Shown: positions 35,901 to 61,574, counted from the stretch's first letter. The stretch is DNA of 64,000 nt from Eubacteriales bacterium (GCA_045603085.1 JAZULL010000132.1:10575-74574); one strand, 5' to 3'. Numbers and translations are program-made. The notes: a model not told the origin generated them from the sequence alone.

Positions 35901-37606
35901 GGAATGGTCATGGTGTCGGTGATTGCCATTTGGTAGTTCACCGTTCCCTCGGTCTTGGCAGACAGACCGATCTGACCGCTAAGCCCGATGAATCCCGAAC
36001 CGACGTCACTCATGGTCAGCTGAATCGAAATATCTCTCGTTCCATTTCCGCTGTAAAGCGATGCGCTGACCGAAGGGGCTGTTGCATCAAGATATATCTT
36101 TTGCGCCGAGGTCTTGACGTCGCCTGTGATGTAGTTCCAAGAGGTATCTGCATAGGTTCCGCTCATTCCGATAACCCGGATCGGGTTGTTTTCATGTCCC
36201 GGTGCCATGGTCATACCGGCACTTACCGTAAACGGACCGTACCGTGCCACGGTGCAGGTATCTCCATTGGCATTGACTGACGTAGAAAGCGTGGGATTGC
36301 TCAGCGTGACGTTCACACCGTTCGCAAGGACGTTGAGCGTAACGCTCCCCACTTGTTTCATCTTTTCTGTGAAATACACGTCAAAGTAAAGGAAGTCGCC
36401 ATCCGTTCCCGCCCAAACCGAGGAAAAGTCGGTCAGCTCCGGCCAACTCTCCTTATCGGTTTCATTGAGCTTGGGGCTCATGCTGCCAGTCATAGTAATT
36501 TTTTCAATTTCGGGCGATTTGTTGTCTATAAGGATATTGTAGTCTATGAGATCCCACTTATTGGGAAGCGTCAGCGCATTACCCGCAAGGTCGGTCACGG
36601 GTGCCCTGCCCTCAACAGCGTCTATAAATCTGAGCGGATTGTCCTCATAAACCAGCGTATGCTGATCGGTGTATTTGTCATAGGCTACACTGTAAGCGTA
36701 GACCTGACCGATTCCGAACACGTCGAACGTTTCGTCGTCTGCTCCGTTTGAAGAACCGACAATGGCAAGAACCAGATATTCCCCTTCCTCGGGAGCTGCG
36801 CCGCCCGAGATCCGGAAGGTCATGCGGTTATTCTCAAAGGATTCTGCGCGATAGGTGAGCCGACCGACCTCCACACCGCTGTTGGCTTTTGCATACGAAA
36901 GGGTCACGGTGTATTCGTCAAGAGAGATCTCTCCGTTGGCAGGACGAAGGGTTTCACTGAAGGTCAGCGTAAAGGATGAAAAGTCATCCATCTCGATCCC
37001 CGTGATCCCGGGCTTTTTGTTATCAATCGCTACCGCATAGGGCGTGGACAGATTGGCTTGGGTCTGGAGCTTATCAACCTTGTAATAATCCACGTCCATG
37101 TATCCCTTTTTCACAGTTCCAAGAGACGCACCGTCTCTGTCAAGTGCCTGCATCGAGCCACCGCTGTAGGAAATCGCGCCAATTCTCATCACGGTTTCAC
37201 TGCTGAAAACACCGTAGTATCGGCTGCCGTAGTAATCCCACGTGCCCGTGCCCTCATACACGACCTTGGTTCCCGTGATCATGTTGTATATGCCACCGTG
37301 GGCATATCCCCAAGCCATCTGGGTGTGGGGGTGCTCATTTGTTCTGAACAGCGGGCCGATGCTCATCGTCGTGGATGTACGTGCATACTCGTACTTGATC
37401 CATTCCGCCTTGAGCTCGTTATAGATCTCGTCGTTGTAAACCGGAGCGACCGTATAATCTCTCAGATCGATGGTGGAGGTATAGGGCTCCTCTTCCGCCC
37501 GAACCTCAATCACCGCTGTATCAAAAACGATCTGCGGCGCCAGTGGCAAAAGCACCGCGAGCGTCAGAAGCAGTGCCGCCAGCTTCTTGAATATGGTTTT
37601 GTTCAT
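29993..37606 (-). CDS. giant secreted protein (2537 aa) with many Ig-like domain boundaries
   Basis: I trimmed the start to MNKTIFKKLAALLLTLAVLLPLAP (signal peptide). The motif D-x-x-[AKSP]-P-x-[IV] recurs (DNKKPGITGI, DNKSPEIEKI, DATAPSVSAS, DETPPKVSDL, DTRAPSVQIV, DNDAPILLSR, DRDAPEITVS, DQVAPKMQLV), as at the starts of bacterial Ig-like domains. There is no anchor motif. Confidence 0.85.
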   Translation of the reverse strand: MNKTIFKKLAALLLTLAVLLPLAPQIVFDTAVIEVRAEEEPYTSTIDLRDYTVAPVYNDEIYNELKAEWIKYEYARTSTTMSIGPLFRTNEHPHTQMAWGYAHGGIYNMITGTKVVYEGTGTWDYYGSRYYGVFSSETVMRIGAISYSGGSMQALDRDGASLGTVKKGYMDVDYYKVDKLQTQANLSTPYAVAIDNKKPGITGIEMDDFSSFTLTFSETLRPANGEISLDEYTVTLSYAKANSGVEVGRLTYRAESFENNRMTFRISGGAAPEEGEYLVLAIVGSSNGADDETFDVFGIGQVYAYSVAYDKYTDQHTLVYEDNPLRFIDAVEGRAPVTDLAGNALTLPNKWDLIDYNILIDNKSPEIEKITMTGSMSPKLNETDKESWPELTDFSSVWAGTDGDFLYFDVYFTEKMKQVGSVTLNVLANGVNVTLSNPTLSTSVNANGDTCTVARYGPFTVSAGMTMAPGHENNPIRVIGMSGTYADTSWNYITGDVKTSAQKIYLDATAPSVSASLYSGNGTRDISIQLTMSDVGSGFIGLSGQIGLSAKTEGTVNYQMAITDTMTIPDDSAYTYSGAFRANEVSWQTIPLYSGTRYIHIKLVGEASSITVDELKVEYSLPDWAGNRNTTDASRVEPGYTYDETPPKVSDLSASVHYTNTGAYVTAQWSASDFSGDDGITTYYQWRETKPADYSAGWMSAGKQAEGFAWLLPEEGYPAFDSETDTTLTLWVYAVDKSGNKSEMASKTVQVLLDKPNYSANLKGDPAVPTKEPSLNLSVAQGLSADKDGYLRAFVSFVSPEGKDDAYSYTYVFILSSADLEAAQSIDVFPLTQSGISSRDVYRVVMGTDENDNATFTSVSTLTMQSFDDLLAGWYGDVRVTFDLAYDDNATVADNVLIPQNGLLSAQVTDGSYIQAEDEIVFLVSCDIQNVFEVEFFNFADAQGESFEGNKMFYQTLAGVSFDLTLQNTYWPELGVRDVDENDTFVSIVKVNADGSLGQPVITIPWSMAVLQRLTIPRVELSTGVYTVQVTVAMKDGQVMTVTAAERLVLDNTVVRAGVTETYITPNIPISSHSSMPSLIRFDENGKPYLAEGQSVNSALNLYDTSTFVIRNTATDGYIEHMTVSMAGQSETIRTGTYTNEVGGVLNFGFSVTAESAEQTLQGFTVGKIAAIYVWNPAIHQSREQGLVTTDGYVFTFHSENAIDHDTWTYDEITGIGKSTLNKNADGIYTMARLIGLTDGNNVICYQVVMENGLESPVEQFTVYANTETPSAGLDTDVLEEKLNLSAEGEPINIAGADISLQNVFTSAGIVGTYYLTKDAMGLLTYTEGDDGSLVEQYQEYKYTRSNTLNDLNSGYYPQWTYRDFVMYNASYGYCYDANGNQVSDTRHRLYYQSSVYYYNLYSVEPDAIIRLKGDDSRTYMTSADGGTDECVTYKMGNNMEAANGAFMIITDSGACVLVFPQFAPTEDAYAQPVVEGYQPKYRLTDKQVEFKGEFQIGPCYNIGNGTLDMYASISNGVYVDRSVSYVIFTDAYGNEIERFYLEGYYSGTNAVGYSMGMISTSGGNQVEIEMINPLADGINHQIGDRVESVWAQLVLYDANTGRELRSNVLEVTHPDRTYEDPVPEPYWLDDYDGLRLNWNTSVYVQGGTSANFNHKLNIFQDGDHQITVTDRFGLTQTVTVTTTHFAKFQSPIVQIDNTEKTTQPVTVTVTVPDGAAYDSVWVSGGGDDVIIEGSGTSTVTVIFKASTSVEIYWDLTPDVSDAYMGYYLEIDNIHPADLAVRWDYGENPEDYVYGDVIAYVYDKNGNWDIIDPMTGKAPTYTFVYGSGVTEYTFPTLRIDALSGEDGYCDLGAFTIALEVELKELPPPPMIEIDTRAPSVQIVPYAMRNQEAVPRESYLVYEDLEQRMQSGDENYIDLLNPSLLPYEGYAAYTDAAEFAEALGWASRYRFNIEVQDLNKTRIIIKNGLYASAPESYYTASSDVVENVSLLGNTLEVTGPAQFTIFVIDEMGNVTAFRMNLYNVGNAPVPTYTKMPATVGDDHAIRVDLTVPADGTDLRITAVDGVPATEAIFTKNGIYTISYSYLYQGEPVDEQLKIEIIEVDNDAPILLSRRWSVQAGTSTRGEVTVTLTFSKPIDLVQTTLGAAELPDSVTVKAVGNTVTVRYSDNYRDLELLFRGINGKWSEVITLGAVTNIDRDAPEITVSDPVYSTDGRKATVSLTSDEKVSFRESSSVSTAFTRTFDQNGAYEYVFVDAAGNAATVTVNITGIVDTAPTFSFSKNADGSEAVATPDALGEVAIGDIFYVSVDRAATVSFNGESYAVDAHEWLGLAVGDKSGGSIYARDAYGNVSGAVFTSIDYPDQVAPKMQLVMYTVYASMLDLSDLEARILANCAAVDDRDGNVQVHVAYEIPTEAGAYPVTYTATDAAGNKSEITGMLQVYQTVLPGVAIDGNVVERESIYLAESQDALNLRVDMQGEPYELTWLSGIRTAAQMKTHATELELVDDEILLPFAGQSGYYTILITTQSHDQYRITIYIK

Positions 37607-37631
37607 AGTGGGTTTCCTTTCATTATGTAAA

Positions 37632-37943
37632 TCATGCTGTCGTCTTTCTGTTCTGCTCACACATGCAAATGCCAATCAGGTCGTCGCCGTGGCAATAATG
37701 TGCGCAATCCACACAACAGCCCTCTATGAAGCGACTGGTACCGTATCGGCACAGCTCCTGCATCTGTGTTACGAAGGGGCGACCGTCGTCTGTGTACAGA
37801 GGGTTTAACTTGAAATCGGGATAAATGGGTATCGGAGCGCCTTGGGCTCTTTCAAATTCCTCGTAGTACCCGTACCGCAATTCGAATTGCTTTCCAAACA
37901 CCGTCAACATCTTAAAAACGTCGCCGTCTCTTATCTGATTCAT
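37632..37943 (-). CDS. small Cys/His-rich protein (103 aa), first gene of the giant-protein operon
   Basis: GGAGA RBS. The C-terminus reads CRYGTSRFIEGCCVDCAHYCHGDDLIGICMC. The stop is 25 nt before the 2537-aa gene. Confidence 0.6.
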   Translation of the reverse strand: MNQIRDGDVFKMLTVFGKQFELRYGYYEEFERAQGAPIPIYPDFKLNPLYTDDGRPFVTQMQELCRYGTSRFIEGCCVDCAHYCHGDDLIGICMCEQNRKTTA

Positions 37944-38078: not shown

Positions 38079-39299
38079 TTATAGGATGCTTGGGAATTCC
38101 GACCTGTCCTTTACGCCGGTTTTTTGGACGACTCGAAGTACGGTCTGCTTTACCGTGGATTCGGATATGTAGAGCATCGCTGCAATCTCCTTGGAAGTAA
38201 AACCAAAGGTTGCCAGCTTTGCCACTTCCCTTTCTCTGGCTGTCAGGTTTATTGCAATATTTCGGTTACGCACGATACCGCTGAGCTTTGACCAGCCAAC
38301 GTTATAAGTTCTGTACAGCTCCAGCACGCGATCAACCGCCCCGGGATCTTGAAGCGCGATTCGCTCTTCCAACAGTCCGTCGAAGTGACGGACGTATTCG
38401 GCAAGCACACCGAAAAAACGGTCAGCTAACGCCAAGCTGATTGCTCTATCCATGTGTCGTATCGCGGATTCATTGTCTCCGCCATTGTGATAGGAGACGG
38501 CGCAGGATAGTCTTAAAAACATTTCCGGAAGAATCGTTTCGTCTACAACCGCTTGTGAGATCATCGGCTCAACGGTATATGGCATCATTCTCATCATAGC
38601 CAAGCCGTGAACCCCCTCGAACTCAAGCTGTTTTGCAGCGATTGAATATGCTTTCATATACAAGTATTTGGTGTAAAAGACCTTTGCGGCAGGATGCGCC
38701 TCAGGCGGCAAGGGTTCAAAGCAGCCCGTAGTAAACCATGAGGGAAAATCCTTATTATCATAAAGTGAGCTGTCTGCAATAGCAAGCGAAAGCGAGATGA
38801 TCTCTCTTTGCGTTTCGCTCTCACAAGGAGCTTCAAAGATGTGTCTTTTGGCTTCCTTCCACAGCTCATAGTCGCCTCTCCAGATGGCACATTGTGCCAG
38901 CAGCATACCGCCACCCAAAATAGCATAAAATCCGGAATGTGCTGATAAAAAATATCTTGCGCGGTCATATACCTTATCAATTTCTCCCCGTCGATATGCG
39001 ATCTGCGCTTCAAAAAGCGTCATCGCCTCCGGATTGTTCTCCAACATTGCGACACAACCGTCCGCATTCCCAACCTGATTGTATAGATCGGTCATATCAA
39101 GGAAGGGGCTTTTTCTGGGCATAGGCATATGAGGAACCTCCCCCTTTGCGGCACTGGGCAATACCGCATGTGCCGGGATCATCCAGGTGCGTTCCCATCT
39201 CACAGCACCCTTGATCTTCCCTTCCTTGCAAAGTCCTTGCACTCTGCGAGGGGTCACACCCCATTTTTCCGCTGCTTGCTTTACCGTGATCAGATCCAT
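38079..39299 (-). CDS. transcriptional regulator with N-terminal MerR/excisionase-type HTH and C-terminal LuxR/GerE HTH
   Basis: The N-terminus is MDLITVKQAAEKWGVTPRRVQGLCKEGKIKGA. The C-terminus is LTAREREVAKLATFGFTSKEIAAMLYISESTVKQTVLRVVQKTG. I trimmed the start to the ATG at 39299, which has a GGAG RBS. Confidence 0.8.
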   Translation of the reverse strand: MDLITVKQAAEKWGVTPRRVQGLCKEGKIKGAVRWERTWMIPAHAVLPSAAKGEVPHMPMPRKSPFLDMTDLYNQVGNADGCVAMLENNPEAMTLFEAQIAYRRGEIDKVYDRARYFLSAHSGFYAILGGGMLLAQCAIWRGDYELWKEAKRHIFEAPCESETQREIISLSLAIADSSLYDNKDFPSWFTTGCFEPLPPEAHPAAKVFYTKYLYMKAYSIAAKQLEFEGVHGLAMMRMMPYTVEPMISQAVVDETILPEMFLRLSCAVSYHNGGDNESAIRHMDRAISLALADRFFGVLAEYVRHFDGLLEERIALQDPGAVDRVLELYRTYNVGWSKLSGIVRNRNIAINLTAREREVAKLATFGFTSKEIAAMLYISESTVKQTVLRVVQKTGVKDRSEFPSIL

Positions 39300-39360
39300 A
39301 AATTCTCCTTTATCATATATGTACATATATGCTTAAACTACATTGTACGCATACCGCCGC

Positions 39361-39439
39361 TTCGTTTGAACGAATTTTGTTTACGTCGATTTTTCGTTCT
39401 AACGAAACTCCTGCTTCTATTATACTTCGTTCTAACGAA
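39361..39439. promoter_or_regulatory. three phased 14-bp palindromic operators TTCGTT-NN-AACGAA
   Basis: Perfect copies lie at 39361-39374, 39393-39406 and 39426-39439, spaced 32-33 bp apart. Copy 1 overlaps a putative -35 (TTCAAA-17-TACAAT) for the regulator gene. Confidence 0.65.
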
Positions 39440-39493
39440 ATTGTCAACACTTTTGGGGAAAATAATGCCATCATTTTTGTATTTACGATAGAA

Positions 39494-39527
39494 GGTGTCA
39501 CCGGTTCAAGTCCAGTAGGGGGAGCCA
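39494..39527 (+). other. tRNA 3'-end remnant (T-arm, acceptor 3' strand, CCA), putative att-site scar
   Basis: ACCGG-TTCAAGT-CCAGT-AGGGGGA-G-CCA. No complementary 5' acceptor strand (TCCCCCT) exists upstream, so this is not an intact tRNA. It sits at the GC-to-AT compositional break. Confidence 0.55.
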
Positions 39528-39530
39528 ACG

Positions 39531-39554
39531 AAAAAAGCAGGCCGAGTGGCCTGC
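39531..39554 (-). terminator. intrinsic terminator (minus-strand orientation)
   Basis: GCAGGCC-actc-GGCCTGC followed by TTTTTT on the minus strand. Confidence 0.65.
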
Positions 39555-39620
39555 TTCGTTGTGCTCGTAGGACAAAATTGCAACTCAAGCGATATAATGT
39601 TATTCTTAAAAAGAGACTTC

Positions 39621-39690
39621 TATAAAGGCTTTTAGAAACCAAAAATACCTGGCATCTAAACTACAACAGTTCGGATCACAAGGTCTTTTC
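39621..39690 (-). repeat. cassette-boundary repeat, copy A (short form, hairpin-terminator core)
   Basis: TATAAAGGCTTTTAGAAACCAAAAATACCTGGCATCTAAACTACAACAGTTCGGATCACAAGGTCTTTTC aligns with copies B and C. It lies immediately 3' of the RloC-like gene. Confidence 0.7.
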
Positions 39691-39702
39691 CAAATACGAT
39701 TA

Positions 39703-42270
39703 CTAGACACCCATGCGTTTGTTGTATTCTGTCACCCAAACGCGAAAAGCTTCTACATCTTTTTTGAAATCTTCAATATCTACAATGACCGGAGCTGAAT
39801 CCTGAGGTTGAGAGTGCTCAAAATATGAATACTTCGTCATCATACTTTCGATAATCTCGCAATCTTCAACCCTGATATTAGCTAGTTTTTTGATGATTCC
39901 TTGCGTTCTTATTTGCTTATCAAATCTTTGAACAGATTTTAGAATCAAAACATCTTCCACAGAACGTTCAACCAGTATTCTAAATCTTTTGTATTCGGTG
40001 TCTATAGCATGTTGATATTCTTCAGAATCTTCATCTTTTTTCTTAATTTGAGCTATTGCATCCAAAATGCCACTCAACTGACTTTTTATTTTTCCATGAT
40101 ATAAATCCTCAAAATCTGGAAGTCCCTTGTATTTTGAACCCGCACGAATGTGGCACTCTTTAAAAGCAACTGACATTTCCTTACAACATGTCGAAAGGCC
40201 AACCAATAAAGAAATCCTATGCGTAAATACAATGACCTGTCGTGTTTGAGACATTTCAACAATTCTTTTGGTCGCATATTCTTCGTAATTGCAATCAAGC
40301 GATGATATAGGATCGTCAATGATAACAGGACTCAAGGCATCTCGTCCTGTAGCATCAGCAAAAAAAGCCGCTAAAGCTACAATTCTTTGCTCACCTTCGC
40401 TCAGAATGTCCTCAGGTTTTGCGCTTGTTTCATCAGTAATAAGCTTTATTCTGTAAGGCGACTTACCTTTCGTAGATGGCGCTTTCTCCAATTGAACCTT
40501 CAACCTGGGAGCCATTCTTTTTAGTTCGGCAGCAAAGCGTTCAATATATGATTCTGTGATCAGTATATCTGCTAGTTCATTGCTTTGACTGGTTATTTTA
40601 TTCGTTTTTACTAAAGTTAGTGAATCATCTAAAACTTTCATTTCAGATTTGTTAGAGATCACCCTTTTTATATTCTCTTGATTGTCTGCAATCCATTTAT
40701 GACACTCTAAGCATTCAAGTTCGCTACGTAAAATCTCTTGCGCCCCATCCTTTAAAGTATCTGTAAGATTTTTATACTCTTTTTCAAGATAGCACTTAAC
40801 AGAAACGAGTTCTTTTACGGCTGTGTCAACATCAATTTTTTGCAAAGAAATATAGCATTCTTCAGCTGTTTTTATATCTGAAAATTCTATACTCTTTTTA
40901 TAAAAATCAAATGTAGCATTGAACGAAAATCCTTCAATGTATTTACCTAGAGCATGCTCCACTCTATTAAAATTGAAATCTCGTTTTGCAAGTAATTTGC
41001 ATAAAGCAAAAAATTTGTTTTCTTTTTTTTCAAGATTTTCACTACATTGCCCATTGACATAATTATCGATAGAAGAAAATCTTTTCAAAGCATCGTCGGA
41101 TAATTGTTGATTGCAAAGAGGACATATTGAACCGCTGCCCGCGTATTCGATTCCAGTCTTGGGCTGAAGAGTTGAAACATAATACTGTTTGGCATATTTC
41201 CACAGTTCCCTCCAAGCAACCAACTTAACACTGCAATTATCATTTTCGTTTGCAGCTTCGCTAAACATTTTTTGGGATAAACCATACGCCTCTTTTGCTT
41301 CAACGTACTCTTTATACATTTCACAAATATCATGTTTGTTGTATACTGTCTGTGCAGTCACGAGATCTTCTAAAATTTGAGTAACTTCGCCGAGTCGTTC
41401 ACTTATTGTTTTGATTTTCTGATCAATAAACTCACGGTTTAATACTGCCGAAATTTCAGATAATCTATTTTCTTGTTGCTCTGTCCAATTCAAATACTTA
41501 TCATCAAACACGGTATTGCTTTCAATGCTTTTTACCCACTGTATGTTTGAATACGACCCAATTGAAGAAGGCACTTGTATAGTAATCTTTTCGAGAGCTT
41601 TTTTTCGAGATAAAATTTTAGCTTTTATTCTTTCAGCTATATTTGCTAATTCAGTTAATACAGAAAACACAAAAGGCTCGTAAGAAACCTTGTTAGATGA
41701 TGTAACGTATGCTCCAGATATTTTAGTATCGAATACATCGCAAGATGTGAGTGCCGGGTGCTTTTCTTCCTTCGACAAATCGCAAGTTATAGTTTTGGTT
41801 TCTCCGTTTTGCGAAACTTCAATTTTGCATGTCGGTTTTCCCGAACCACTTTTTTCAAACACATTTGCTTGTATAAGATCCGCATACGGTGTTCCGCTTA
41901 CTCTTTTAAACATTCGCATAAAGCTCGATTTACCTGTGCCATTAGCTCCATATACAACCGTTACGCCTTTTTCCGCAAAAGAAAGCTGAGCTTTCGAATC
42001 AAGGGCGTTTACACCACATATATCAAATATTTTAAGTATAGATAACTGTTCTAAAACCGTGCTTGGCAAGGTTTCTTGGCTTTTAAGTTCTTTATAATCA
42101 ACGATTTCTTTTTTTGTTTGCTTAATGCACATATCTGCATATGCTTCAATTTGTGCATCCTCGATAGGTTGGGAGTTGTATATTCTCCATACAGCATCCC
42201 TAAGCCAGTACGGTTGATTATGCATCCATTTTTCAAACTTACCATACATTGCATTTGCACTCTCAGTCAT
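39703..42270 (-). CDS. RloC/PrrC-like AAA_13 ABC-type ATPase with coiled-coil CxxC hook (candidate anticodon nuclease / abortive-infection protein)
   Basis: - Walker A: YGANGTGKSSF.
- CxxC motif mid-protein, within a long helical region: GSICPLCNQQL.
- Signature-like: SEGEQRIVALAAFFA.
- Walker B: VIIDDPISSLD.
- H-loop: VIVFTHR.
- C-terminal R-x-x-x-E (RILVE) plus FEHSQ, reminiscent of the PrrC nuclease triad.
- Start trimmed to the ATG at 42270, which has a GGAG RBS. Confidence 0.65.
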   Translation of the reverse strand: MTESANAMYGKFEKWMHNQPYWLRDAVWRIYNSQPIEDAQIEAYADMCIKQTKKEIVDYKELKSQETLPSTVLEQLSILKIFDICGVNALDSKAQLSFAEKGVTVVYGANGTGKSSFMRMFKRVSGTPYADLIQANVFEKSGSGKPTCKIEVSQNGETKTITCDLSKEEKHPALTSCDVFDTKISGAYVTSSNKVSYEPFVFSVLTELANIAERIKAKILSRKKALEKITIQVPSSIGSYSNIQWVKSIESNTVFDDKYLNWTEQQENRLSEISAVLNREFIDQKIKTISERLGEVTQILEDLVTAQTVYNKHDICEMYKEYVEAKEAYGLSQKMFSEAANENDNCSVKLVAWRELWKYAKQYYVSTLQPKTGIEYAGSGSICPLCNQQLSDDALKRFSSIDNYVNGQCSENLEKKENKFFALCKLLAKRDFNFNRVEHALGKYIEGFSFNATFDFYKKSIEFSDIKTAEECYISLQKIDVDTAVKELVSVKCYLEKEYKNLTDTLKDGAQEILRSELECLECHKWIADNQENIKRVISNKSEMKVLDDSLTLVKTNKITSQSNELADILITESYIERFAAELKRMAPRLKVQLEKAPSTKGKSPYRIKLITDETSAKPEDILSEGEQRIVALAAFFADATGRDALSPVIIDDPISSLDCNYEEYATKRIVEMSQTRQVIVFTHRISLLVGLSTCCKEMSVAFKECHIRAGSKYKGLPDFEDLYHGKIKSQLSGILDAIAQIKKKDEDSEEYQHAIDTEYKRFRILVERSVEDVLILKSVQRFDKQIRTQGIIKKLANIRVEDCEIIESMMTKYSYFEHSQPQDSAPVIVDIEDFKKDVEAFRVWVTEYNKRMGV

Positions 42271-42666
42271 TTTCTCCACTCCTTCACAAAACGTTCTGCT
42301 CGTTAATTAATTATAGCACTATTTAAGCGTAAATTCAATCAATTTTACAAAAAAAACACGTTTCTCGCGGCACTACTAACTAGTTGTGTGAGTGGATTTA
42401 TCCTCTATTTTACAGAATGCATTTACTACAATCTTCCCGTATATACCATTAGATTTTTACTTTCTTACATTTGGAGGCGTTATTAGAAAAACCACACCTG
42501 CCAAAAACGAATGAAAAGTGATAGAATCTATCCGAGCCTATCTTCTCACTTTTTAGTTAACGTTTCAATTGTGATTCTAATACCGAGTTTGATTGCGTAG
42601 CAGAATATTACACAATCACCATGACTTGCATACTTGCTCCAGCTTTCCCAAAGAAACGCTGTCCCC

Positions 42667-42858
42667 AAATCCTGAACAGCTTGATTCATATAATTGAAGA
42701 TGTTTTTATTTGCAAATCGATTTTGAGTAATTTTCAAAATTTTTTATTGGACACATCCATTGGCAGAATCCGTGAAAAAACATTGAAATATAAGGCTTTC
42801 GGGCACAAAAAAAGACCTTGCATCTAAACCGTAATGGTTCGGATTACAAGGTCTTTTC
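42667..42858 (-). repeat. cassette-boundary repeat, copy B (about 190 bp)
   Basis: Aligns over its full length with 46978-47167, including the hairpin AGACCTTG...CAAGGTCT plus T-run (minus strand) and the start of a mini-ORF (MNQAVQDL...). Confidence 0.75.
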
Positions 42859-42900
42859 ATTTTTCTGGCTCCCCATTATCAACCTAAATTGAACTGAACA

Positions 42901-45900
42901 TTAGTCCTCCTCATCTCTTTGCTTCATTCTTTGCATGTACTGGTGCTCCTTAATATGATGCATCGCTTCGTTTGTATAACTATCTGCGATATCACGCAAT
43001 GCTTCAGCGTATTTTGCGTACCCCATAGACTCGACCTTTTCGGCCATTTCGTTATATTTCTGTGCCAATTGCAATTCGGGTTTTCCTTCGGGATCTACTC
43101 TCACAACTCCTCTTTGATTAAATACTCCGATACAATACCCCCTTCTCATTTCATCATTTTCTACTTTGTTTAATTCGTTGATAATAAACTCGTCAATCAA
43201 ACCGTTTTCAAGCTTTTTCGCATGTGAAAGACCGCGCCCTATAGTTTGGAGGACGACTTCTTCTCGATCTTCTTCTTTCCCCCACTTTTTACAATATGTC
43301 ATCCAGGTTGAAAATATTTCTTCGTGATAGCATCCATTCCAATCTGTTCCTGGCACAACACAGAATTCGAATATCAGATGATATAGACGCTTTACGTCAT
43401 ATTCAGAAAGTTGTTCTTCATGAGTATCTGAATGCTTTTTTCTATAAACAAGCTTAATAAGTTCGCAGAAAAATTCAGGTTCGTTTGCAAGTCTATAACG
43501 CGTTGCCAATGGTTTCACCGAAGAATGATCATCAAGCCACAACAAATAAATCATCTCAATATCTGAAATTTCTTTTATACTTATGCTTCTCTCTTGCTGA
43601 AGCAAGCCAATTAAATTTATAACTGCATCTGGATCCAATTCGTCGTTGCTTTCGGTAGTAGCAGCTTTAATCAAAACTGTATATATCTCAGTATGAGAAA
43701 TATTACAATTTTCAACGGTATTTCCATACAAATTGACCGCTGCTGCGTATCGCTCTACTTTCACTAGGTTTTTCCAAACAATATCCGACTCAACACTATC
43801 GTCTAAACCAAAGCGGGGTATAAGAATAGCACGCCAAAACAAATCAAAGTTTTCTTGTAAGAGTTGCTCAGCGATTTCAAATAACCGCATTGACAACCTT
43901 GGTCTCGACAATACCCATGCTACGTAATTTGCGTCATAAGTATTAAACTTTGCTGAAGATAACGCCTCCGGACCGTTTACTATAACAAACCCATAGATGA
44001 CCGTAGCAAAAAAGGTTTTATCTATTTTATTTTCATAACAGAGTTGTACAAGCCTGAAAAATTCCTCCTCGTTTAATTTCATTCCTAAATGTTGAGCAAT
44101 CCAAGTTGGTTGACTCAGAGCCGTTCCAAATTCGACAACTGAATCTATACCAAATGTCGTAAATATCTCGTAAACTGCATTTTCCTGCTTATTTCGTTTA
44201 GCTTGCCATTTTGTCTCGAATTGATCATCTTCATCATAATCGATATACCCTGATTCATACAACAACCGATAACTATATCGAATATCAGTCGGAGCAGTCA
44301 ATGCAATACTGGAATCCAATATTTCTATCATAGATGAATCTATCTCATCTTCCGAGTGGTGTGTTATCCATTGTTTTTCAAAACAAAAAGCTTTCCAAAA
44401 CGGATATTTTTGAGAATCACCCCAATTTGCTGCTTTCACATTGACTAAAGAAAGGAATTCAATCATGGTTTCACGTCCCATATGATCAAAGTCGGATAAC
44501 AGGTCTTTCATTTTTTCATAATTTTCTTTAGCAAGAGACAAGGCTAATTGAGAGTAGTACTGGTATAAAGATGCAATGTCTTGATTCGAAAGTTTAATCT
44601 CCTTAGGCAAATTAGGTAGAATATATCGAGGACGATGTGTTCCCCCTGTCATGCGAGTAGCATGAGGAAGCAGTTGTGTGATGATCATCCAAGCAATTTC
44701 CGGACATTCGCGTTGTAACGCCATGAGTGCTGACTTCTGTTTTTCGACTGATGCCATTGTTTGTATATGCCATGGAAGCAAGATACTAACAATTGAATTT
44801 GTTGGCGTGTTTGAATAATTGGTTTTCTCATATTTTAAATTCGCTAACAGTCCCAATATTCTGATGCACTTAATCAAATGATCCTTATCCCAAGCCAATC
44901 CTTCAACTGACCATAATACTGAACAAATAGTATTTCGAGAGAATATTGGGTTGTCATTAGCCTTGGGAAATAATGCTTCGATACTTTGAGGAGATGTTAC
45001 GATTTGTTTCTCTAAACATTCTAAAAAAGTTTCTGGGCTTATTTCTGCAATCACAGGCAAATGCGATTCTAAACTTATCCAGACGGTTTTATCTGCATCA
45101 GTAAAAACTGCACGGATTAATTCTCTTGCCTTTGAGGCAATAAAATTCGATGAACATGATGTCTGCATTCCAATATTACAGATAATCGCTAAGCCGTGAA
45201 TCAATCCATTCCTAAGCGCATCAGAATGATCAAATGCACCGCCTTCCGGAGTCAGCCAATCAATATCACCGTTTTCTTTAATGCGTTTATCCTTTTCTTC
45301 TAAGACCGCTTTCGAGACCTCAAAGGCTTTTTTGATAATATCGTCAAAATAAGTTTTTGAACAAGATTGGATTATAGAACGTCTATGATTTATATGCCAT
45401 ATACCATCCATGAACGAAACATTGGGATCAGGCTGCAGAGAATCTTCTTGGAGTTTTCGTCGGATATCCGAATAATTCGTTTCCAATAAAGTTGCCAATA
45501 ACTCTTTATCATTACTATTCTTTTCATTCCATTCTCCCACCAAAGCGATCTTTGCCCAAAAGGAGTCATCAGAATAATCATGAGGTAGTTCTTTTGTCTC
45601 AACCAAATCAATTACACTGATAAATTTTTCTTTAATAAAATCCGGTATACTGCTTATCGTAACATACTTAGCGCTTCTATCATATCTGCTTGCCCAATCT
45701 ACGAGCAATGCCCACACTGACATTGCATCATCTTTACAATTAGACGCTATTAAGGATCGGATCAAAAAATCATTGATGCTACTTTCGTAGTCCAAATCAA
45801 AAATGAGAATTGTGAATATCTTGCAGAACGCCCATAGTTGCTCGTCTGTAATGTCCTGATTATTATTAGCCTGTGATAAGTGTTTTTTTATTATATCTAG

Positions 45901-46416
45901 TTTTTCTCTATTGGTATCACTGGAGTAATGAGGAGTTTGAATTCTATTTAAAAAGTCTCTGGCACTCGATGCACCATTAGCTTGATCATGAATAAAACGG
46001 AGCGAATCTTCATTGGCTACTGAACCTGAAATCAAAACGATTTTATCAGTGTTTGGATCAAATGTTTCTTTGTTAAAATCGCTCCAAGCAGCGGCAATTA
46101 CTTCTTTGAAAGCCGGATTGTCACCTATAGTTATTCCATGTTTTATTTGGCACAGCAGATTTGCTGAACGTGATTCTGCAGAAGCTGTCACAACAATATC
46201 ATCGATATCTTTACCAAGTCTTTTGGCTTGAAAATCTAGTGATGTTACAGGTAAGTCTAGTAAAGGAGAAAAACCTTTTACCAAAAGAGCAAGAATAAAT
46301 GTAGCTTGAACGCGGTGCTCAAAATCTACGCCACCTCCACCGGTAGAAAAAGGATTGCTAAGTTTTTTTACTGTTAGTCTATCTAAACTCTCGCCTCTCT
46401 GTGTTTGAGATGTCAT
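42901..46416 (-). CDS. 1171-aa protein: N-terminal PD-(D/E)xK-like (Cap4/DUF4297-style) nuclease motif, then about 1000 aa of helical repeats
   Basis: GGAGG RBS and ATG at 46416. The N-terminus reads STGGGGVDFEHRVQATFILALL...LDFQAKRLGKDIDDIVV...LLCQIKHG, giving an (E/Q)...DD...QxK pattern. There is no Walker A motif. The remainder is Leu/Ile/Glu-rich and helical. Confidence 0.5.
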   Translation of the reverse strand: MTSQTQRGESLDRLTVKKLSNPFSTGGGGVDFEHRVQATFILALLVKGFSPLLDLPVTSLDFQAKRLGKDIDDIVVTASAESRSANLLCQIKHGITIGDNPAFKEVIAAAWSDFNKETFDPNTDKIVLISGSVANEDSLRFIHDQANGASSARDFLNRIQTPHYSSDTNREKLDIIKKHLSQANNNQDITDEQLWAFCKIFTILIFDLDYESSINDFLIRSLIASNCKDDAMSVWALLVDWASRYDRSAKYVTISSIPDFIKEKFISVIDLVETKELPHDYSDDSFWAKIALVGEWNEKNSNDKELLATLLETNYSDIRRKLQEDSLQPDPNVSFMDGIWHINHRRSIIQSCSKTYFDDIIKKAFEVSKAVLEEKDKRIKENGDIDWLTPEGGAFDHSDALRNGLIHGLAIICNIGMQTSCSSNFIASKARELIRAVFTDADKTVWISLESHLPVIAEISPETFLECLEKQIVTSPQSIEALFPKANDNPIFSRNTICSVLWSVEGLAWDKDHLIKCIRILGLLANLKYEKTNYSNTPTNSIVSILLPWHIQTMASVEKQKSALMALQRECPEIAWMIITQLLPHATRMTGGTHRPRYILPNLPKEIKLSNQDIASLYQYYSQLALSLAKENYEKMKDLLSDFDHMGRETMIEFLSLVNVKAANWGDSQKYPFWKAFCFEKQWITHHSEDEIDSSMIEILDSSIALTAPTDIRYSYRLLYESGYIDYDEDDQFETKWQAKRNKQENAVYEIFTTFGIDSVVEFGTALSQPTWIAQHLGMKLNEEEFFRLVQLCYENKIDKTFFATVIYGFVIVNGPEALSSAKFNTYDANYVAWVLSRPRLSMRLFEIAEQLLQENFDLFWRAILIPRFGLDDSVESDIVWKNLVKVERYAAAVNLYGNTVENCNISHTEIYTVLIKAATTESNDELDPDAVINLIGLLQQERSISIKEISDIEMIYLLWLDDHSSVKPLATRYRLANEPEFFCELIKLVYRKKHSDTHEEQLSEYDVKRLYHLIFEFCVVPGTDWNGCYHEEIFSTWMTYCKKWGKEEDREEVVLQTIGRGLSHAKKLENGLIDEFIINELNKVENDEMRRGYCIGVFNQRGVVRVDPEGKPELQLAQKYNEMAEKVESMGYAKYAEALRDIADSYTNEAMHHIKEHQYMQRMKQRDEED

Positions 46417-46485
46417 ATGTTGCCTCCTATCTGTCTTATCATGTCCTTTTTTGAATCGATTCTTTACAACATTATCTGACACCTT

Positions 46486-46514
46486 ATTATACCATATAAC
46501 TATAAATTGCACAA
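46486..46514 (-). promoter_or_regulatory. sigma-70 promoter with extended -10
   Basis: The minus strand reads TTGTGC-17 nt-TGGTATAAT, about 65 nt upstream of the ATG at 46416. Confidence 0.45.
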
Positions 46515-46977
46515 TAGTTAATGTATGCATTATTATATATTATCCGCGGGCTCCCCCCTTCAGCCATGTTCAATGCAGCACAGATCTCTTAGATGTAAAT
46601 ATAAAAAATATCACTGAGAAATGAAATAGCAGTTCAAAGGCAGGTATCGATTGAAAATCTGCGCCAAGACTAATTCTCCACTCAGACAACAAGACAAATC
46701 TCACTTATTATACTTGCACAACATGTCTGAAAGAGTTCAGTGCCAAGCAATCACTTTCCCATGCGCAGAACTCCTACAACTATTTCGCTTGCGAATCATG
46801 TTCCAAGACTCTCAAGCAAGATTGAATATTCAGAAAAGACTTTCGTTCTGAAAAAATATGTTCCGTTCTATCACGTGATTTATGGAGTTTTAAAATAATG
46901 ATCGCCCACACTCAATGAACGGGTACTGAACACCAAATAAATGTGACGCTGACTACCATAAAAGAAAAGCCGTCCGG

Positions 46978-47167
46978 AAATCTTGAACAGCTTGATTCAT
47001 AGTATGAAGCGATATTTATTTCCCAACAAGATTTGAGCAGATCTCAAAAAGTATTATTAGACAAATCTAAAGGGAGAAAACGCGAAAAAGCATTGATACA
47101 TAAGGCTTTTTGTTACAAAAAGGGCTTGCATCTAAACCGTAATGGTTCGAAATGCAAGGTCCTTTTG
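46978..47167 (-). repeat. cassette-boundary repeat, copy C (about 190 bp)
   Basis: See copy B. Here the mini-ORF is truncated (MNQAVQDFRTAFLLW*). Confidence 0.75.
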
Positions 47168-47179
47168 TCTCTATAACAT

Positions 47180-47740
47180 TCACTTTATACCTATGCAAGA
47201 ATCAAACCGTGACAAAAACCAACTACGCAAAGCACAAACAACAGCCTCATCTTTTACTAATACTGCTACATAACTACTATTAGTAGGTAACGCAACAACA
47301 GCCTCCTTGGTAGATAGTCCTTGTATTCTAATATCATTATCCTTCCGTAGGCGTATTTCAGCATTGAGAATTGTGAACAATTCTTTCAACTCTTCTTTAG
47401 CGTTTGCTGCTTTACTGATATCTGAATTAAATATCATCTGAAATTTTACCCCACGAGCTGCGGCAGTAGCAATTTTTCCATTTACATCACCATATATATT
47501 TCCCGAAACGCTTTGTCCCCAAATAATCTCATCCTTTTTTGCCCGTGTATACATAGAGTGAAGGTGTACTAACATTGCATCACGTGAAGTAAAAACAGTT
47601 AATTTATCATTAACTTTCAATTTATTTTCTGTCTTTGCTGCATATTCCTTGCGCTTGTAATGAACAGCCACACATACAGATACAATATTTGTTATTAATA
47701 AAGCGAACGATATAATTATTGGAATAAATACTTCTGCCAT
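47180..47740 (-). CDS. membrane-anchored hypothetical protein (186 aa)
   Basis: I trimmed the start to MAEVFIPIIISFALLITNIVSVCVAV, an N-terminal TM helix, followed by a soluble domain of unknown family. GGAGG RBS lies inside the upstream gene. Confidence 0.6.
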   Translation of the reverse strand: MAEVFIPIIISFALLITNIVSVCVAVHYKRKEYAAKTENKLKVNDKLTVFTSRDAMLVHLHSMYTRAKKDEIIWGQSVSGNIYGDVNGKIATAAARGVKFQMIFNSDISKAANAKEELKELFTILNAEIRLRKDNDIRIQGLSTKEAVVALPTNSSYVAVLVKDEAVVCALRSWFLSRFDSCIGIK

Positions 47741-47741
47741 A

Positions 47742-48560
47742 TTAAACATCCTCCTTATTGATCTCCATATATTCACAAGCACCACACAATATAGAATTTT
47801 GTGTACAGGCATATCGATAATATGTCATAATAAAATCATCATATTTCTCACATATTCTACTTCGAATTGGATTTTGATAGTTTACATCAACATCAAATAA
47901 ATCCACTGCTCTTTGGTTAGTTATAGAACCAGAACACAAACTATTGACCCACGATTCATTGAATGACTTTTCTACACTTTTAGTTAGATTTATGCCATCA
48001 CAACAAAATTTAATAGTAACTGCTTTTTTATCTCTTGTTAAAACAGAAAAAATCCCGTGAGTAACATCATTTTTTACAATAACACCCCATCCCCATTTAT
48101 CTAAAAACTGTTGTATAGGTAATTCCCCAAATTGTTTATCCTGATAAACAATAGCCGATGCGGCATAAATATTATTTTTATATAGAATTCTTCCTTGAAA
48201 TATACCATGTGGGATTATTACATTCCACGCGGAAAAACAATCGATAGAATTCTCATATAAATTTTGTTCAATAGTTTCACAACAACAAGTAAATGAAATC
48301 GCTCCATCAACTTCTATAAATCCTTTTTTTAGATGTACTCGCAATATATCACCGTCTAAGAAAAATGGGGAATCGCTACATGATAACAAATAACGTTCAT
48401 GCCCTTTCTTTCCATCGATTGTATAATATGATACCGACATATATGATGAATGCTCATATCCAAACATATCAGTCTGATGTAAAATCACATTAATAAAAAT
48501 ACTATCAGAAACAAATTGAGTATACAGCCATTCAAAATTATACGAAGTAGCATTTTTCAT
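47742..48560 (-). CDS. hypothetical protein (272 aa)
   Basis: GGAG RBS. The stop is 1 nt before the next ATG. The protein looks Cys- and aromatic-rich with predicted beta-rich sequence, and I recognise no motif. Confidence 0.6.
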   Translation of the reverse strand: MKNATSYNFEWLYTQFVSDSIFINVILHQTDMFGYEHSSYMSVSYYTIDGKKGHERYLLSCSDSPFFLDGDILRVHLKKGFIEVDGAISFTCCCETIEQNLYENSIDCFSAWNVIIPHGIFQGRILYKNNIYAASAIVYQDKQFGELPIQQFLDKWGWGVIVKNDVTHGIFSVLTRDKKAVTIKFCCDGINLTKSVEKSFNESWVNSLCSGSITNQRAVDLFDVDVNYQNPIRSRICEKYDDFIMTYYRYACTQNSILCGACEYMEINKEDV

Positions 48561-48818
48561 TATTCTGCTCCTATTACAGTCAAAGCATATAAGCCCTCAG
48601 TTTATTATACTACAATTGTTGCATTTTTCAATACATGAAACGCCTAACAAAAATTGATGTAAATGATATAACAAATATATATTCACATATCTACGCAAAA
48701 CAAGTTTTTTTGTTATAAACCTTTTAACCAAAAAACACCTAAAGTCAAACTGGCAGTTAAAATGAAGATGTTCAAAAATAAAGCCAAAAAAACCACATTG
48801 TGTCAATACTTAATCTAA

Positions 48819-49421
48819 TTAGTATATTGAGAAAATTCCAAAAAAAATAGTAAATAGCAAACCCACAACAGATAGTAACGTAGCAATCGTGTTAGTTTTT
48901 TCTTGCTTTTTTAATCTAAATTCTTTATTCATTATTTCCTCAGACAATTGTTGCAGCACCATTTCTCCCAACTCAACATTCCCATGAACTAACGCTTCGC
49001 TAATATTATTAAGCAATGTAGCCTCTTTAGTGGGAAGATTGGAAAATGGTGTCTTTTCTGTAACATATGTATGTAATATCAGACACATTGTACGTACATT
49101 CTCGTTCTTCTTTTCGTGAAAAACACTTTTAAAATTAGCATCTGTATATGCATCATATCGAAATAAAATTTGTTCGAGTATATCTAAGTATGATGTTTGT
49201 TTTTTAGATGATAAACCTTGATATATTTTGTTATAATTCATCATCGACCGATCATAAATTTCCTCAATTGAACTTTTATTATCAGAAACAATGGATTTTA
49301 TAGCACAATGAAAGCGTCTTAATTTAACTTGTTCTTGAAATTTATTAAGATAAAAAAAACAAAAAGCGCATATATACAACAACATAAGAAAAATAACAAG
49401 CACATACTGAAAAACATCCAT
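48819..49421 (-). CDS. hypothetical membrane protein with TM helices at both termini (200 aa)
   Basis: GGGGAGG RBS. N-terminal helix MDVFQYVLVIFLMLLYICAFCFFYL and C-terminal helix LLSVVGLLFTIFFGIFSIY. Confidence 0.6.
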   Translation of the reverse strand: MDVFQYVLVIFLMLLYICAFCFFYLNKFQEQVKLRRFHCAIKSIVSDNKSSIEEIYDRSMMNYNKIYQGLSSKKQTSYLDILEQILFRYDAYTDANFKSVFHEKKNENVRTMCLILHTYVTEKTPFSNLPTKEATLLNNISEALVHGNVELGEMVLQQLSEEIMNKEFRLKKQEKTNTIATLLSVVGLLFTIFFGIFSIY

Positions 49422-49834
49422 ATTATTACCTCCCCTAGTTTTTAAATACATTTATATTATGTCGAAAACAGAAGTATTTTTTAATATATTATCAAAAAAA
49501 CTACGTAATCATTCAGTAAAATTATCCCCTGCAGAAAAATTCCTTAGTGAGTTGATTTTTCAATCACTCTATTACAACTATATATAAAAATCACTTAATA
49601 GGATTTATTGAAAATCTTATGTTATACTATACTTTCTTCGTCTAACAATTTATGACACTCAAGTGTTTTAAGAAGATTAATTGAATAACCCATTTCCTAA
49701 TTGTAGACAAGCACTGTAATACTCCTTTATCTACGTCTGAAATACAATTAATGATTTCACAAATTCCCATCTCACTAATTAAAAATCCTTTATGAGACAG
49801 ATTATAACAAATATCGACAATATATTCAATATTC

Positions 49835-49894
49835 AGGGATAATTAACAATTTATAGGGATAAATAACATTTTATAAGGATAAAAGCATTTTGTA
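49835..49894. repeat. three tandem 20-bp direct repeats (iteron-like)
   Basis: AGGGATAATTAACAATTTAT, AGGGATAAATAACATTTTAT and AAGGATAAAAGCATTTTGTA start at 49835, 49855 and 49875. They lie 30 bp from the 3' end of the recombinase gene. Confidence 0.75.
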
Positions 49895-49924
49895 AACCAA
49901 GATGTGTTTTTCGGATATTTAAAG

Positions 49925-51568: not shown

Positions 51569-52437
51569 GCCGTTTTATCCTCCGTTTCTATGTTCGTTAC
51601 CTCTGCGTGATTGATAAATGTGACGGTCAGCGTTCCGTCTCTGTTGACCGCTATCTTCTGTACCGTTTCCCGTATCAGCATTATGTCAAGTTCGGTGATA
51701 ATCGGCAGATTGCGATACTTGTCCATCAGAGCTTCGGTCATTCCTCTGCTTCTGTCAAGAGGGCAGCACTCATATTTGTGTTCAACACATTTGAGTATCA
51801 TCTTGGAAAGAACACCAAACTCAACGTCCGTCTGTTCCTTGACTCTCTCAATCTCCTTGTTCTGTCGTATAACCTCCATCGAGGGAGAATACTCAATGTT
51901 GGAAGTATTCAATCGCAAAAGCTCGGGATTGTTTCGCACCCGATTCAAGATAATGAGCATGGCTGTAAAGATCTCTCTGTCACCCAAGTATATATCCACC
52001 TTACAACCGCTTGGGCAAAGCCATTTTTCTCGGCTTCTCCACTTGTTGCGGCGCCCCATATTCTGACCGCAGCAGGAACACACTAATTTACTTTTGATAA
52101 GTGTGGTAATCTCGGGGAGCTCGGTCTGTGTGCCACCCATATCCGACTTTCTTTTGTTGGCGAGATCAAAATCGGTCTGCGATATGATGGCGGGATAACC
52201 GTCTGCCCCTGCGTATTTCGGATTTGCTATGATACGGGAGATCAAGTTTTTCGTCCACACAGATTTATCAAGATAGTAGATAACTCCCTGCTCTGTCAGT
52301 TCGGCGGCAATAGCCATTAATGACTTACCGCCTATGTAATCTGCGAAGATGTCGCGGACTACTTTGGCTTCAAATTCAAGAATAACGGGCTTGCCGTTCT
52401 TGACTTCATATCCGTAAAGTATGGTTCTTAAACTCAT
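51565..52437 (-). CDS. recombinase-domain/zinc-ribbon protein lacking the N-terminal resolvase catalytic domain
   Basis: The protein starts directly with YGYEVKNGKPVILEFEAKVVRDIF (recombinase domain), followed by CSCCGQNMGRR...WLCPSGC. There is no RVST catalytic serine motif. ATGA overlaps occur on both sides. Confidence 0.8.
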   Translation of the reverse strand: MSLRTILYGYEVKNGKPVILEFEAKVVRDIFADYIGGKSLMAIAAELTEQGVIYYLDKSVWTKNLISRIIANPKYAGADGYPAIISQTDFDLANKRKSDMGGTQTELPEITTLIKSKLVCSCCGQNMGRRNKWRSREKWLCPSGCKVDIYLGDREIFTAMLIILNRVRNNPELLRLNTSNIEYSPSMEVIRQNKEIERVKEQTDVEFGVLSKMILKCVEHKYECCPLDRSRGMTEALMDKYRNLPIITELDIMLIRETVQKIAVNRDGTLTVTFINHAEVTNIETEDKTA

Positions 52438-54002: not shown

Positions 54003-54068
54003 ATTCGTGTCGCCCTCCTTTCGACCATGATTATACTGATTTTTGAGAATCCCGCAAGGATGCGATTA

Positions 54069-61548: not shown

Positions 61549-61574
61549 TTCCCTTTTCCCTCCAAATATTATAC

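Follow-up and report, generated by a model that had tools for sequence, protein, structure and literature searches.

Among described genomic islands, the closest case to the locus presented here is that of the ssrA islands of Dehalococcoides, which combine a CcrB-type serine recombinase with a tRNA-like target and tandem stacking; their integrase-less members have been explained as cis-mobilisable elements joined by accretion, and their adaptive cargo is variable (McMurdie et al. 2011, PMC3146451). In streptococcal ICEs (integrative and conjugative elements) and IMEs (integrative and mobilizable elements), serine-integrase triplets are located at the extremity of the element, the junction repeats are very short, and one or several coding sequences sometimes separate the triplet from the target (Ambroset et al. 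2016, PMC4701971). For ICESt1 and ICESt3, the parts of the account that are relayed by others describe site-specific integration beside a resident element, with the older partner losing its recombination modules (Pavlovic et al. 2004, via PMC3146451 and PMC5704250). The subject of this study is a stretch of 64,000 nucleotides (nt) from a Eubacteriales bacterium (GCA_045603085.1 JAZULL010000132.1:10575-74574), referred to as the window, in which three copies (A, B and C) of a hairpin-bearing module lie among defence-like genes, beside a tRNA-Asn remnant and close to three adjacent genes for large serine recombinases (LSRs). We lean, with somewhat better than even confidence, towards the view that the three copies are the seams of an accreted, partly decayed island, which makes up the cargo region on the right of an integrative element powered by the LSR triplet. 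Serial insertion at a reconstituted site, as proposed in an initial annotation of the window, is the best reading of the data and rests on the adjacency of the module to tRNA genes, an insertion polymorphism between two related loci, a right-end (RE) sequence shared with LSR elements, and the turnover of cargo between conserved flanks.

The three repeat copies are real and non-random. A repeat search recovered the 49-nt hairpin core in each of them (84-88% identity to copy B; positions in Table 1), together with two repeat families of two copies each, at 42650-42690/46961-47001 (88%) and 42695-42811/47005-47121 (71%), so that B and C are 71-88% alike over about 210 nt each. An nhmmer profile of the full copies placed all three on the minus strand (A 39690-39625, B 42860-42647, C 47167-46953) and found no fourth copy in the window. 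A 34-nt hairpin pattern with up to three mismatches matched B and C only, with none expected in shuffled sequences. Each copy begins 12-40 nt past the stop codon of a minus-strand gene (stops at 39703 for the 858-aa ORF of the 855-aa gene, at 42901 for the 1171-aa gene, and at 47180), which agrees with the annotated location of the repeats directly 3' of such genes. The long imperfect hairpin with a T-run that had been assigned to every copy folds strongly in B (-24.2 kcal/mol, z -6.8) and C (-21.5 kcal/mol, z -5.8), whereas the hairpin of copy A is decayed (-12.4 kcal/mol, z -1.6). In B and C it is flanked by A5 and T5-7, which fits the form of an intrinsic (bidirectional) terminator, and both escape a simple terminator scan because their stems have internal loops. 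Judged by their structure, the hairpins would double as terminators of the cargo genes.

Relatives of the window (loci L001-L044) were collected through the hairpin, the protein of an IS3-family insertion sequence (IS), the 1171-aa protein and the last LSR. Among 185,579 species genomes, the hairpin was located at 11 loci with one exact-pattern match each, all of them in metagenome-assembled genomes of gut or rumen Clostridia labelled Oscillospiraceae or Eubacteriales, and a metagenome collection added one further locus; profile searches detected extra copies of greater divergence at part of the loci. In viral contigs, three pattern scans gave no match, and a BLAST search with module B against plasmids and phages returned nothing. 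With three copies inside 7.5 kb of the 64-kb window and a single exact match per locus elsewhere, the module does not behave as a genome-wide dispersed repeat. An assignment to the REP- or BOX-like intergenic repeats was rejected, as their scattered, many-copy character is absent.

In several relatives, the module is found at tRNA ends. Two loci (L015 and L016) carry two 5S rRNA genes, an intact tRNA-Asn(GTT) gene ending ..GGGGGAGCCA, the bases TCTG, the hairpin and the remainder of the module, in this order. In L009 the hairpin likewise follows another intact tRNA-Asn gene, and its onset lies 2-4 nt after the CCA of the tRNA (L009, L015). The 3' part of a tRNA alone precedes the hairpin in L004, L006, L007, L010 and L021. 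Regardless of the upstream DNA, the homology among all copies begins at the same base (..NN TG AAAAGACC..), and in the junctions that were compared the tRNA or the RE arm always ends with ..CA, with the A-run and the hairpin always next. Two short loci look like complete but recombinase-less members: L009 comprises tRNA-Asn, hairpin, IS3, a P-loop gene, a second module copy, an HTH gene and an RE within 4.3 kb, and L006 comprises a tRNA remnant, the hairpin, one cargo gene, an RE and a terminator within 2.2 kb. At least two module copies separated by cargo are present in L004, L009, L013-L016 and L023.

An insertion polymorphism is visible between L014 and L015. In L015, the tRNA-Asn end ..GAGCCA is joined to the TCTG-hairpin; in L014, an LSR gene, 55 nt and the sequence ..GGCAAACACA (..GGGCGGCAAACACA) are joined to the same TCTG-hairpin, and the downstream DNA of the two loci is the same. 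The LSR element therefore lies precisely where the tRNA end would otherwise meet the hairpin of an older unit that has no recombinase, and another copy of this arm closes the older unit in turn. Compared with L014, L013 lacks exactly the 24-nt arm and 2 nt, and seams without an RE may thus derive from RE-bearing ones. In the window, the tRNA remnant reported beside the repeat-bounded genes is genuine: positions 39503-39527 (+) match the final 25 nt of tRNA-Asn(GTT) of L015 at 88%. Its 5' half is not present, and ARAGORN detected no intact tRNA in the whole window. The host terminator adjoins this remnant on one side and the RE sequence on the other.

As a separate observation on tRNA-Asn, a module copy and a PDC-S01 gene flank the 5' half of this tRNA at L013:5907-5951 (also L014-L016), a piece of nt 1-45 that breaks off past the anticodon stem, and separate tRNA-Asn 3' fragments occur elsewhere in the L013-L016 loci. 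These split halves show signs of a second, anticodon-loop-type integration or of an inversion.

The statement of the initial annotation that no obvious integrase is nearby does not hold, since the three LSR genes lie 2.7 kb from copy C. The middle gene (290 aa, 51565-52437) encodes the 'Recombinase' domain only and lacks the catalytic resolvase domain, and it has the same form in 18/18 related loci. The triplet was found in 18 contigs (L027-L044), which are 91-94% identical in nt sequence to window 54670-49945. A further 226 nt beyond this stretch are common to them, ending ..CGAGCTCA (..AACCGAGTTGCAATTTTGTCCTACGAGCTCA), followed by at least five different flanks, including a tRNA-Lys gene entered at its first base, the DNA located after the tRNA-Lys remnant in L005, and plain terminators. 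A conserved end joined to different flanks across genomes is as found in integrative elements. The last bases of this common right arm recur in the window, where 39586-39563 is identical to them at 24/24 nt. The RE is about 27 nt long, resembles a tRNA 3' end (GTT....GAGC.CA) and ends with ..GAGTTGCAATTTTGTCCTACGAGCTCA; RE-like copies are located downstream of the arrays in L009, L006, L013 and L002, and directly after every RE there is an A-run, with a hairpin and a T-run next. The equivalent arm of L004 clearly resembles a tRNA (GGTTCGAAATTGTTGGGGGGAGCCA). Because the window contains an RE and the same RE ends 18 LSR elements, the 10 kb from 49727 to 39563 are the accreted cargo region between the LSR genes and the right end of the element.

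Upstream of the triplet, a domain scan of 54000-64000 revealed PemK, HTH and ABC ATPases, and in this part no relaxase or type IV secretion system domain. A PemK/MazF toxin gene (54225-54599) and a pemK RNA motif (55500-55566; Rfam RF02913, 70 bits) are located just upstream of the triplet, and the PemK gene recurs beside the triplet in relatives.

The link between the module and variable cargo is best seen in L023, the closest relative. It shares with the window both 50053-49727 (88%; the terminal part of the last LSR gene and a further 215 nt) and 47165-42808, i.e. module C through hairpin B (94.6% over 4.36 kb), but between these shared flanks it has 6.9 kb as compared to 2.56 kb in the window. 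Besides a 465-aa gene and a further module copy, the 6.9 kb contain a PDC-S31 gene, a peptidase-U49-like gene and others, so that the slot of the three AT-rich open reading frames (ORFs) of the window is occupied by defence candidates in L023. The right breakpoint coincides with the outer edge of hairpin C, and the left one is the arm end ..TTGTATTTCAGACGTAGATAA (49727), where the window and L023 part company. Unit number or content also differs among L004, L009, L013 and L012. In L023, a small unit (L023:1880-2040) that has a promoter close to consensus and a terminator of its own is present just upstream of a module copy; it holds 22 nt that equal the reverse complement of the 16S rRNA 5' end (GAGAGTTTGATCCTGGCTCAAG) and could be either an antisense RNA or a fragment captured from an rRNA operon.

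On this basis, the following course of events is proposed. The LSR element family would insert at tRNA 3' ends, here tRNA-Asn, between the terminal ..CCA and the following terminator. The module would represent the left end of the element, composed of two variable bases after the tRNA ..CA, TG, an A-run, a 40-nt imperfect hairpin and a T-run, with an IS3 element about 130 nt inward; the hairpin may act as a replacement terminator for the tRNA or the rRNA-tRNA operon, and the tRNA-3'-end-like arm of about 27 nt (RE, ..GAGTTGCAATTTTGTCCTACGAGCTCA) would form the right end. As an occupied site (tRNA end plus hairpin) resembles an empty site (tRNA end plus terminator), elements could enter serially at the same point. 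Later insertions would push older elements downstream, as L014 over L015 suggests, and the older ones may lose their recombinase genes and most of their body. The remnant would be a run of co-oriented cargo genes, mostly for phage defence, split by left-end hairpins that now serve as terminators. The window would then be an end state, with the LSR genes and the arm, the remains of at least three hairpin-led units, and one RE (39563-39586) against the host terminator. Module copies are cut at differing depths, always from the IS3 side (nested truncations), and these cuts could be the marks of such deletions. We infer that the LSRs catalyse these insertions with a crossover at or next to CA; the hairpin arm would be an LSR half-site, and the order of the insertion events is conceived on the same grounds.

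Table 1. Coordinates of the features described in the text, counted from the first nucleotide of the window
Feature	Position	Strand	Description
tRNA-Asn-like 3' part, last 37 nt	39490-39527	+	T arm and acceptor, end ..GGGGGAGCCA; directed toward the island
Palindromic intrinsic terminator of the host flank	39534-39557	.	terminator scan: 10 pairs, 6 G-C
RE2, right-end copy	39563-39586	-	GAGTTGCAATTTTGTCCTACGAGC, then ACA; host terminator directly after
Module copy A	39621-39690	-	decayed hairpin ~39641-39689 plus ~20 nt of following module
Cargo gene 1, 855 aa, ABC/SMC-type ATPase	39703-42270	-	PDC-S06 (PADLOC candidate defence family); Pfam AAA_13, SMC_N
47-aa ORF starting MNQAVQDL	42546-42689	-	first 14 codons are antisense of the IS3 tail
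Module copy B	42647-42860	-	hairpin 42809-42857, second hairpin, AT-rich stretch, last 9 IS3 codons (antisense)
Seam before copy B	42866-42893	-	contains TTCAATTTAGGTTGATAATGG, also present in L026 on the 3' side of cargo gene 2; overlaps GGGGAGCCA
Cargo gene 2, 1171 aa	42901-46416	-	predicted N-terminal nuclease fold (~residues 30-265) and C-terminal alpha-solenoid
Upstream region travelling with cargo gene 2	46417-46628	-	same left boundary in two unrelated contexts
C-terminal third of IS3-family (rve) transposase, pseudogenised	46640-46983	+	in-frame stops, frameshift
Module copy C	46953-47167	-	hairpin 47117-47165, second hairpin, AT-rich stretch, IS3 tail
Three small AT-rich ORFs (210, 272, 210 aa)	47180-49451	-	GC 27-34%; overlapping or adjacent
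Arm past last LSR gene	49727-49924	-	~200 nt; promoter-like TTGAAT-17-TATAAT with TG; ends ..TTGTATTTCAGACGTAGATAA
LSR gene triplet (547, 290, 522 aa)	49925-54002	-	Pfam Resolvase, Recombinase, Zn_ribbon_recom
LSR genes in minus-strand order	54002-52434, 52437-51565, 51568-49925	-	

Positions ~150-217 of the module consist of the tail of an IS3 transposase and its 3' flank. Both long copies had been described as containing the start of a gene (MNQAVQDL), for which an intact version should be sought. The letters are present, but MNQAVQDF.. is the antisense of the transposase C-terminus ..KRKAVRKS and its stop, and an intact gene is therefore not to be expected. In a tblastn search with the transposase of relatives, residues 263-377 fell on 46640-46983 (+) with 60-75% identity (E 3.8e-32); the remnant covers about 320 nt with one frameshift plus in-frame stops, and copy B retains the last 9 transposase codons only. 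In several relatives, the module runs into an intact opposite-strand gene whose IS3-family transposase contains rve and HTH domains (Pfam rve, HTH_21 and HTH_23 in L009), and intact IS3 copies are located next to the module in L004, L009, L012 and L013-22. The candidate that the mini-ORF is a gene start, possibly fused to cargo, was rejected because its translation has stops and tblastn puts the IS3 tail on the opposite strand. The 47-aa ORF, for which neither a family match nor relatives were found, is probably noise and not a gene. In annotation, caution is advisable, as the seemingly conserved "leader peptide" is antisense to an IS tail.

The cargo is defence-like, as had been suggested for it. 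In a PADLOC run, cargo gene 1 matches PDC-S06 (E 5.8e-219, residues 11-855 on profile positions 4-859 of 862); a promoter-like site precedes it at 42338-42310. Cargo gene 2 gave no sequence match in Pfam, NCBIfam or the PDB. AlphaFold2 models (predicted local distance difference test, pLDDT, of 84.8 and 83.7) predict an alpha-solenoid for its C-terminal 800 residues, and a fold search with the whole 1171-aa protein returned generic HEAT/karyopherin solenoids only. The N-terminal domain, which was modelled separately from the whole protein, is matched by Foldseek to LmuA of Lamassu (9hr5_A; E 3.2e-6, TM 0.50), CBASS Cap4 and Avs3. E33, D72, D73, Q90 and K92 are invariant across 27 relatives, and the models identify the N-terminus as a Cap4/LmuA-type nuclease fold and hence as a putative nuclease. 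The same domain heads proteins of about 1700 aa with STAND-type ATPase domains. The three AT-rich ORFs contain predicted membrane segments and have no family match in Pfam, NCBIfam or PADLOC. The arrays of the relatives likewise encode PDC-S01, PDC-S31, Hachiman HamB, a UvrD-like helicase, SIR2, type I restriction-modification, Fic and AAA_15/DUF3226 proteins. Due to this homology, the label defence-like is well supported for the cargo.

In L026 (region 13519-13910), an ArdA/PcfJ-bearing element ends with a 1172-aa homologue of cargo gene 2 and borders on convergent tRNA-Glu and tRNA-Met genes; the window repeats 21 nt of this terminator region at 42873-42893. The 9-mer GGGGAGCCA before copy B equals the 3' end of tRNA-Asn, but it was not accepted as a certain tRNA-Asn remnant. 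The adjoining 21 nt are homologous to L026, where a reverse tRNA-Glu follows, and the orientation of the 9-mer is therefore ambiguous.

Several observations weigh against accretion by an LSR element. The three direct repeats that bound successive units are derived from attachment (att) regions, but the window has a single RE (39563-39586) and not both att-type ends per unit: no RE precedes hairpins C, B or A, where simple tandem integration predicts one and L014 shows one. The arm of the window ends at 49727 with ..ATAA and not with ..CA. In 18/18 near-identical LSR loci, the module is absent from the 10-kb flanks that were examined. As the left end of the window's own element lies beyond position 64000, the hairpin start of a full LSR element is deduced from LSR-less relatives only, and the insertion polymorphism is one-sided and concerns relatives only (L014 versus L015). 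At least 10 different junctions place the cargo 3' end against the hairpin at one identical nucleotide, a precision that simple decay does not explain. Cargo gene 2 together with 210 nt upstream (46628-42901) is also found without any module but with the same boundaries (blastn breakpoints of L024 and L026 at 46626 and 46628), where it terminates an ICE-like element next to tRNA-Glu (L026) and lies close to tRNA-Pro (L024). Elements of other types therefore contribute to the mosaic. For the hairpin, a formal covariation test gave no significance: 92% of cells pair, which is no better than in shuffles, and one pair alone changes on both sides; two compensatory-looking changes (L022, L009b) are anecdotal, and no covariation is claimed. 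Recombination at these sites is a prediction from sequence comparison.

If the module were simply a portable terminator or flank, cargo could be swapped by homologous recombination, with double crossovers between module copies and the recombinase genes. The similarity of the copies over about 210 nt is enough for such an exchange, the difference between the window and L023 lies between two conserved flanks, and the strong hairpins of B and C with their A- and T-runs resemble bidirectional terminators. Homologous recombination keeps junctions, however, and cannot create them, whereas the hairpin meets more than 10 different sequences at one and the same base. Site-specific insertion is also indicated by the polymorphism between L014 and L015 and by the tRNA-end/RE architecture, and we regard swapping by homology alone as unlikely. 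Another possibility is a mosaic driven by IS3, in which the module would combine the right end of the IS with a favoured target and the copies would be solo ends left by IS-mediated deletions that joined cargo. The transposase tail in the module, the intact IS3 copies beside it and the nested truncations from the IS side are all compatible with this. On the other hand, the hairpin end has no inverted-repeat match to the left end of the IS (TGCTATAATATTGC..) and no target duplications were found, and the hairpin was accordingly rejected as an IS terminus with TG..CA inverted repeats and 3-4 bp duplications. Copies with the hairpin only or the hairpin plus 60 nt contain no IS sequence (A, L001, L003, L005, L008), and an IS does not explain the fixed spot 2-4 nt past the tRNA CCA in different species. 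An IS3-driven origin is therefore considered quite improbable.

The invariant outer edge of the hairpin, which forms a sharp boundary against at least 10 unrelated upstream sequences, is also what a true cassette system would produce, i.e. a serine-recombinase counterpart of integrons in which the hairpin is a dedicated recombination site equivalent to attC and defence genes are excised and inserted singly, beside the recombinase genes and downstream of the arm promoter. The module and all cargo share one orientation, an outward promoter is conserved past the last LSR gene, and the difference between the window and L023 is in the recombinase-proximal slot while the distal units are kept. By inspection, the left arm of the hairpin contains an inverted GGTTCGGAT that resembles the GGTTCGAAT-type tRNA-like-arm motif at the same junction distance. 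However, the hairpin does not follow each cargo unit: one copy accompanies five cargo genes in L012 and 11 in L022, and the cargo genes have promoter-like regions of their own, so that the cassette system considered in the initial annotation is not supported in the form of an integron-like array with a site for each cassette. In addition, the left junctions lie at varying depth in the module or in IS3, which indicates deletions and not site-specific exchange, cargo gene 2 moves without a hairpin, and no circular cassette junction was found. We consider such a system very unlikely, and the more specific idea that the hairpin is a working LSR half-site, a terminator that mimics the tRNA T-arm motif for the capture, stacking and swap of single defence genes, is equally doubtful. 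If it were correct, a serine-recombinase analogue of integrons would be spread among gut Clostridia.

The host flank and the island differ in composition. The GC content shifts near 39.5 kb, from about 53% on the left, where giant surface-protein ORFs and a LuxR-type regulator are encoded, to 27-46% on the right, with a drop to 27-38% at the boundary itself. All island features of interest are on the minus strand, where their order is PemK, three LSR genes, arm, three AT-rich ORFs, copy C, IS3 remnant, 1171-aa gene, copy B, 855-aa gene, copy A, about 35 nt, the RE copy and the terminator. At gathering thresholds, Rfam detected pemK only in the window and, for 39400-47300, nothing at E<=1. Exact-sequence look-up of five window proteins (including LSR3, the LuxR-type regulator, an ABC ATPase, and PDC-S06 with ATG start) gave no record. 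Just outside the island, a perfect TTGACA-17-TATAAT promoter (minus strand, 39419-39447) precedes the LuxR/HTH_17 regulator gene (38079-39326). Further out on the host-like side of the junction, two giant minus-strand ORFs of 2034 and 2560 aa (the latter with a signal peptide) occupy 23704-37675. A GC-rich intergenic stretch downstream of the 2034-aa ORF (23399-23598) is 75% identical to the DNA directly before the RE copy of L009 and looks like a separate dispersed repeat of these genomes.

If accretion at the tRNA end is correct, a very common element family of gut Clostridia targets the junction between the tRNA CCA end and its terminator and brings its own terminator along; public data contain more than 7,500 related recombinase clusters. 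In the literature, a CCA-end/terminator target was not found described for serine-integrase triplets. Defence arrays built by accretion could be mined, for example for the 1171-aa Cap4-nuclease/solenoid family and the three AT-rich ORFs, and the att arms may provide new recombinase tools.

SCCmec elements, which encode CcrAB or CcrC, are also moved by large serine recombinases, insert serially at one site and include recombinase-less pseudo-SCC units with variable cargo. Their target is the 3' end of rlmH (orfX) and their repeats measure 15-18 bp, not a structured 50-nt hairpin; the LSRs of the window match the CcrB and CcrC models weakly, far under the cut-offs. Integron cassettes, such as those with attC or the Vibrio cholerae repeats, resemble the present array in the imperfect hairpin after co-oriented cargo, the one sharp boundary, the homogeneous repeats within an array and the promoter beside the recombinase. 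The present array has no tyrosine IntI and no R''/R' core sequences, its cargo has its own promoters, and most genes of the relatives are not followed by a hairpin. The recombinases detected in the ORFs scanned in 37.6-64 kb are all of the serine type, and none is a tyrosine recombinase. An integron was rejected on these defining features, i.e. the missing IntI and attC core, the promoter-bearing cargo and the genes without a hairpin.

As in the triplet ICEs and IMEs, three adjacent serine recombinase genes are located near the extremity of the element, the junction repeats are very short, and coding sequences lie between triplet and target. In contrast, the targets of those elements are protein genes (mutT, traG, hsdM) and not tRNA ends, a conjugation module is not seen in the part of the present element inside the window, and 10 kb of accreted cargo separate triplet and end. 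With ICESt1 and ICESt3, as far as their relayed description goes, the locus shares the composite islands bounded by att-derived repeats; there, a tyrosine integrase acts at the fda 3' end and both att sites are kept per unit, whereas the internal seams here keep the left-end hairpin only. The ssrA islands share most: a serine recombinase, the 3' part of a tRNA-like gene, tandem islands, integrase-less members and variable cargo. Their repeat is the 20-bp ssrA 3' end with a crossover in the T loop, whereas the crossover here apparently follows the terminal CCA of tRNA-Asn or tRNA-Lys, the seam is a 50-210-nt element-borne terminator hairpin with an IS3 tail, and a recombinase triplet is combined with phage-defence cargo. 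Thus, the tRNA-Asn (apparently also tRNA-Lys) CCA-end/terminator target, the structured seam hairpin carried by the element, and the defence content in gut Clostridia are what sets this locus apart.

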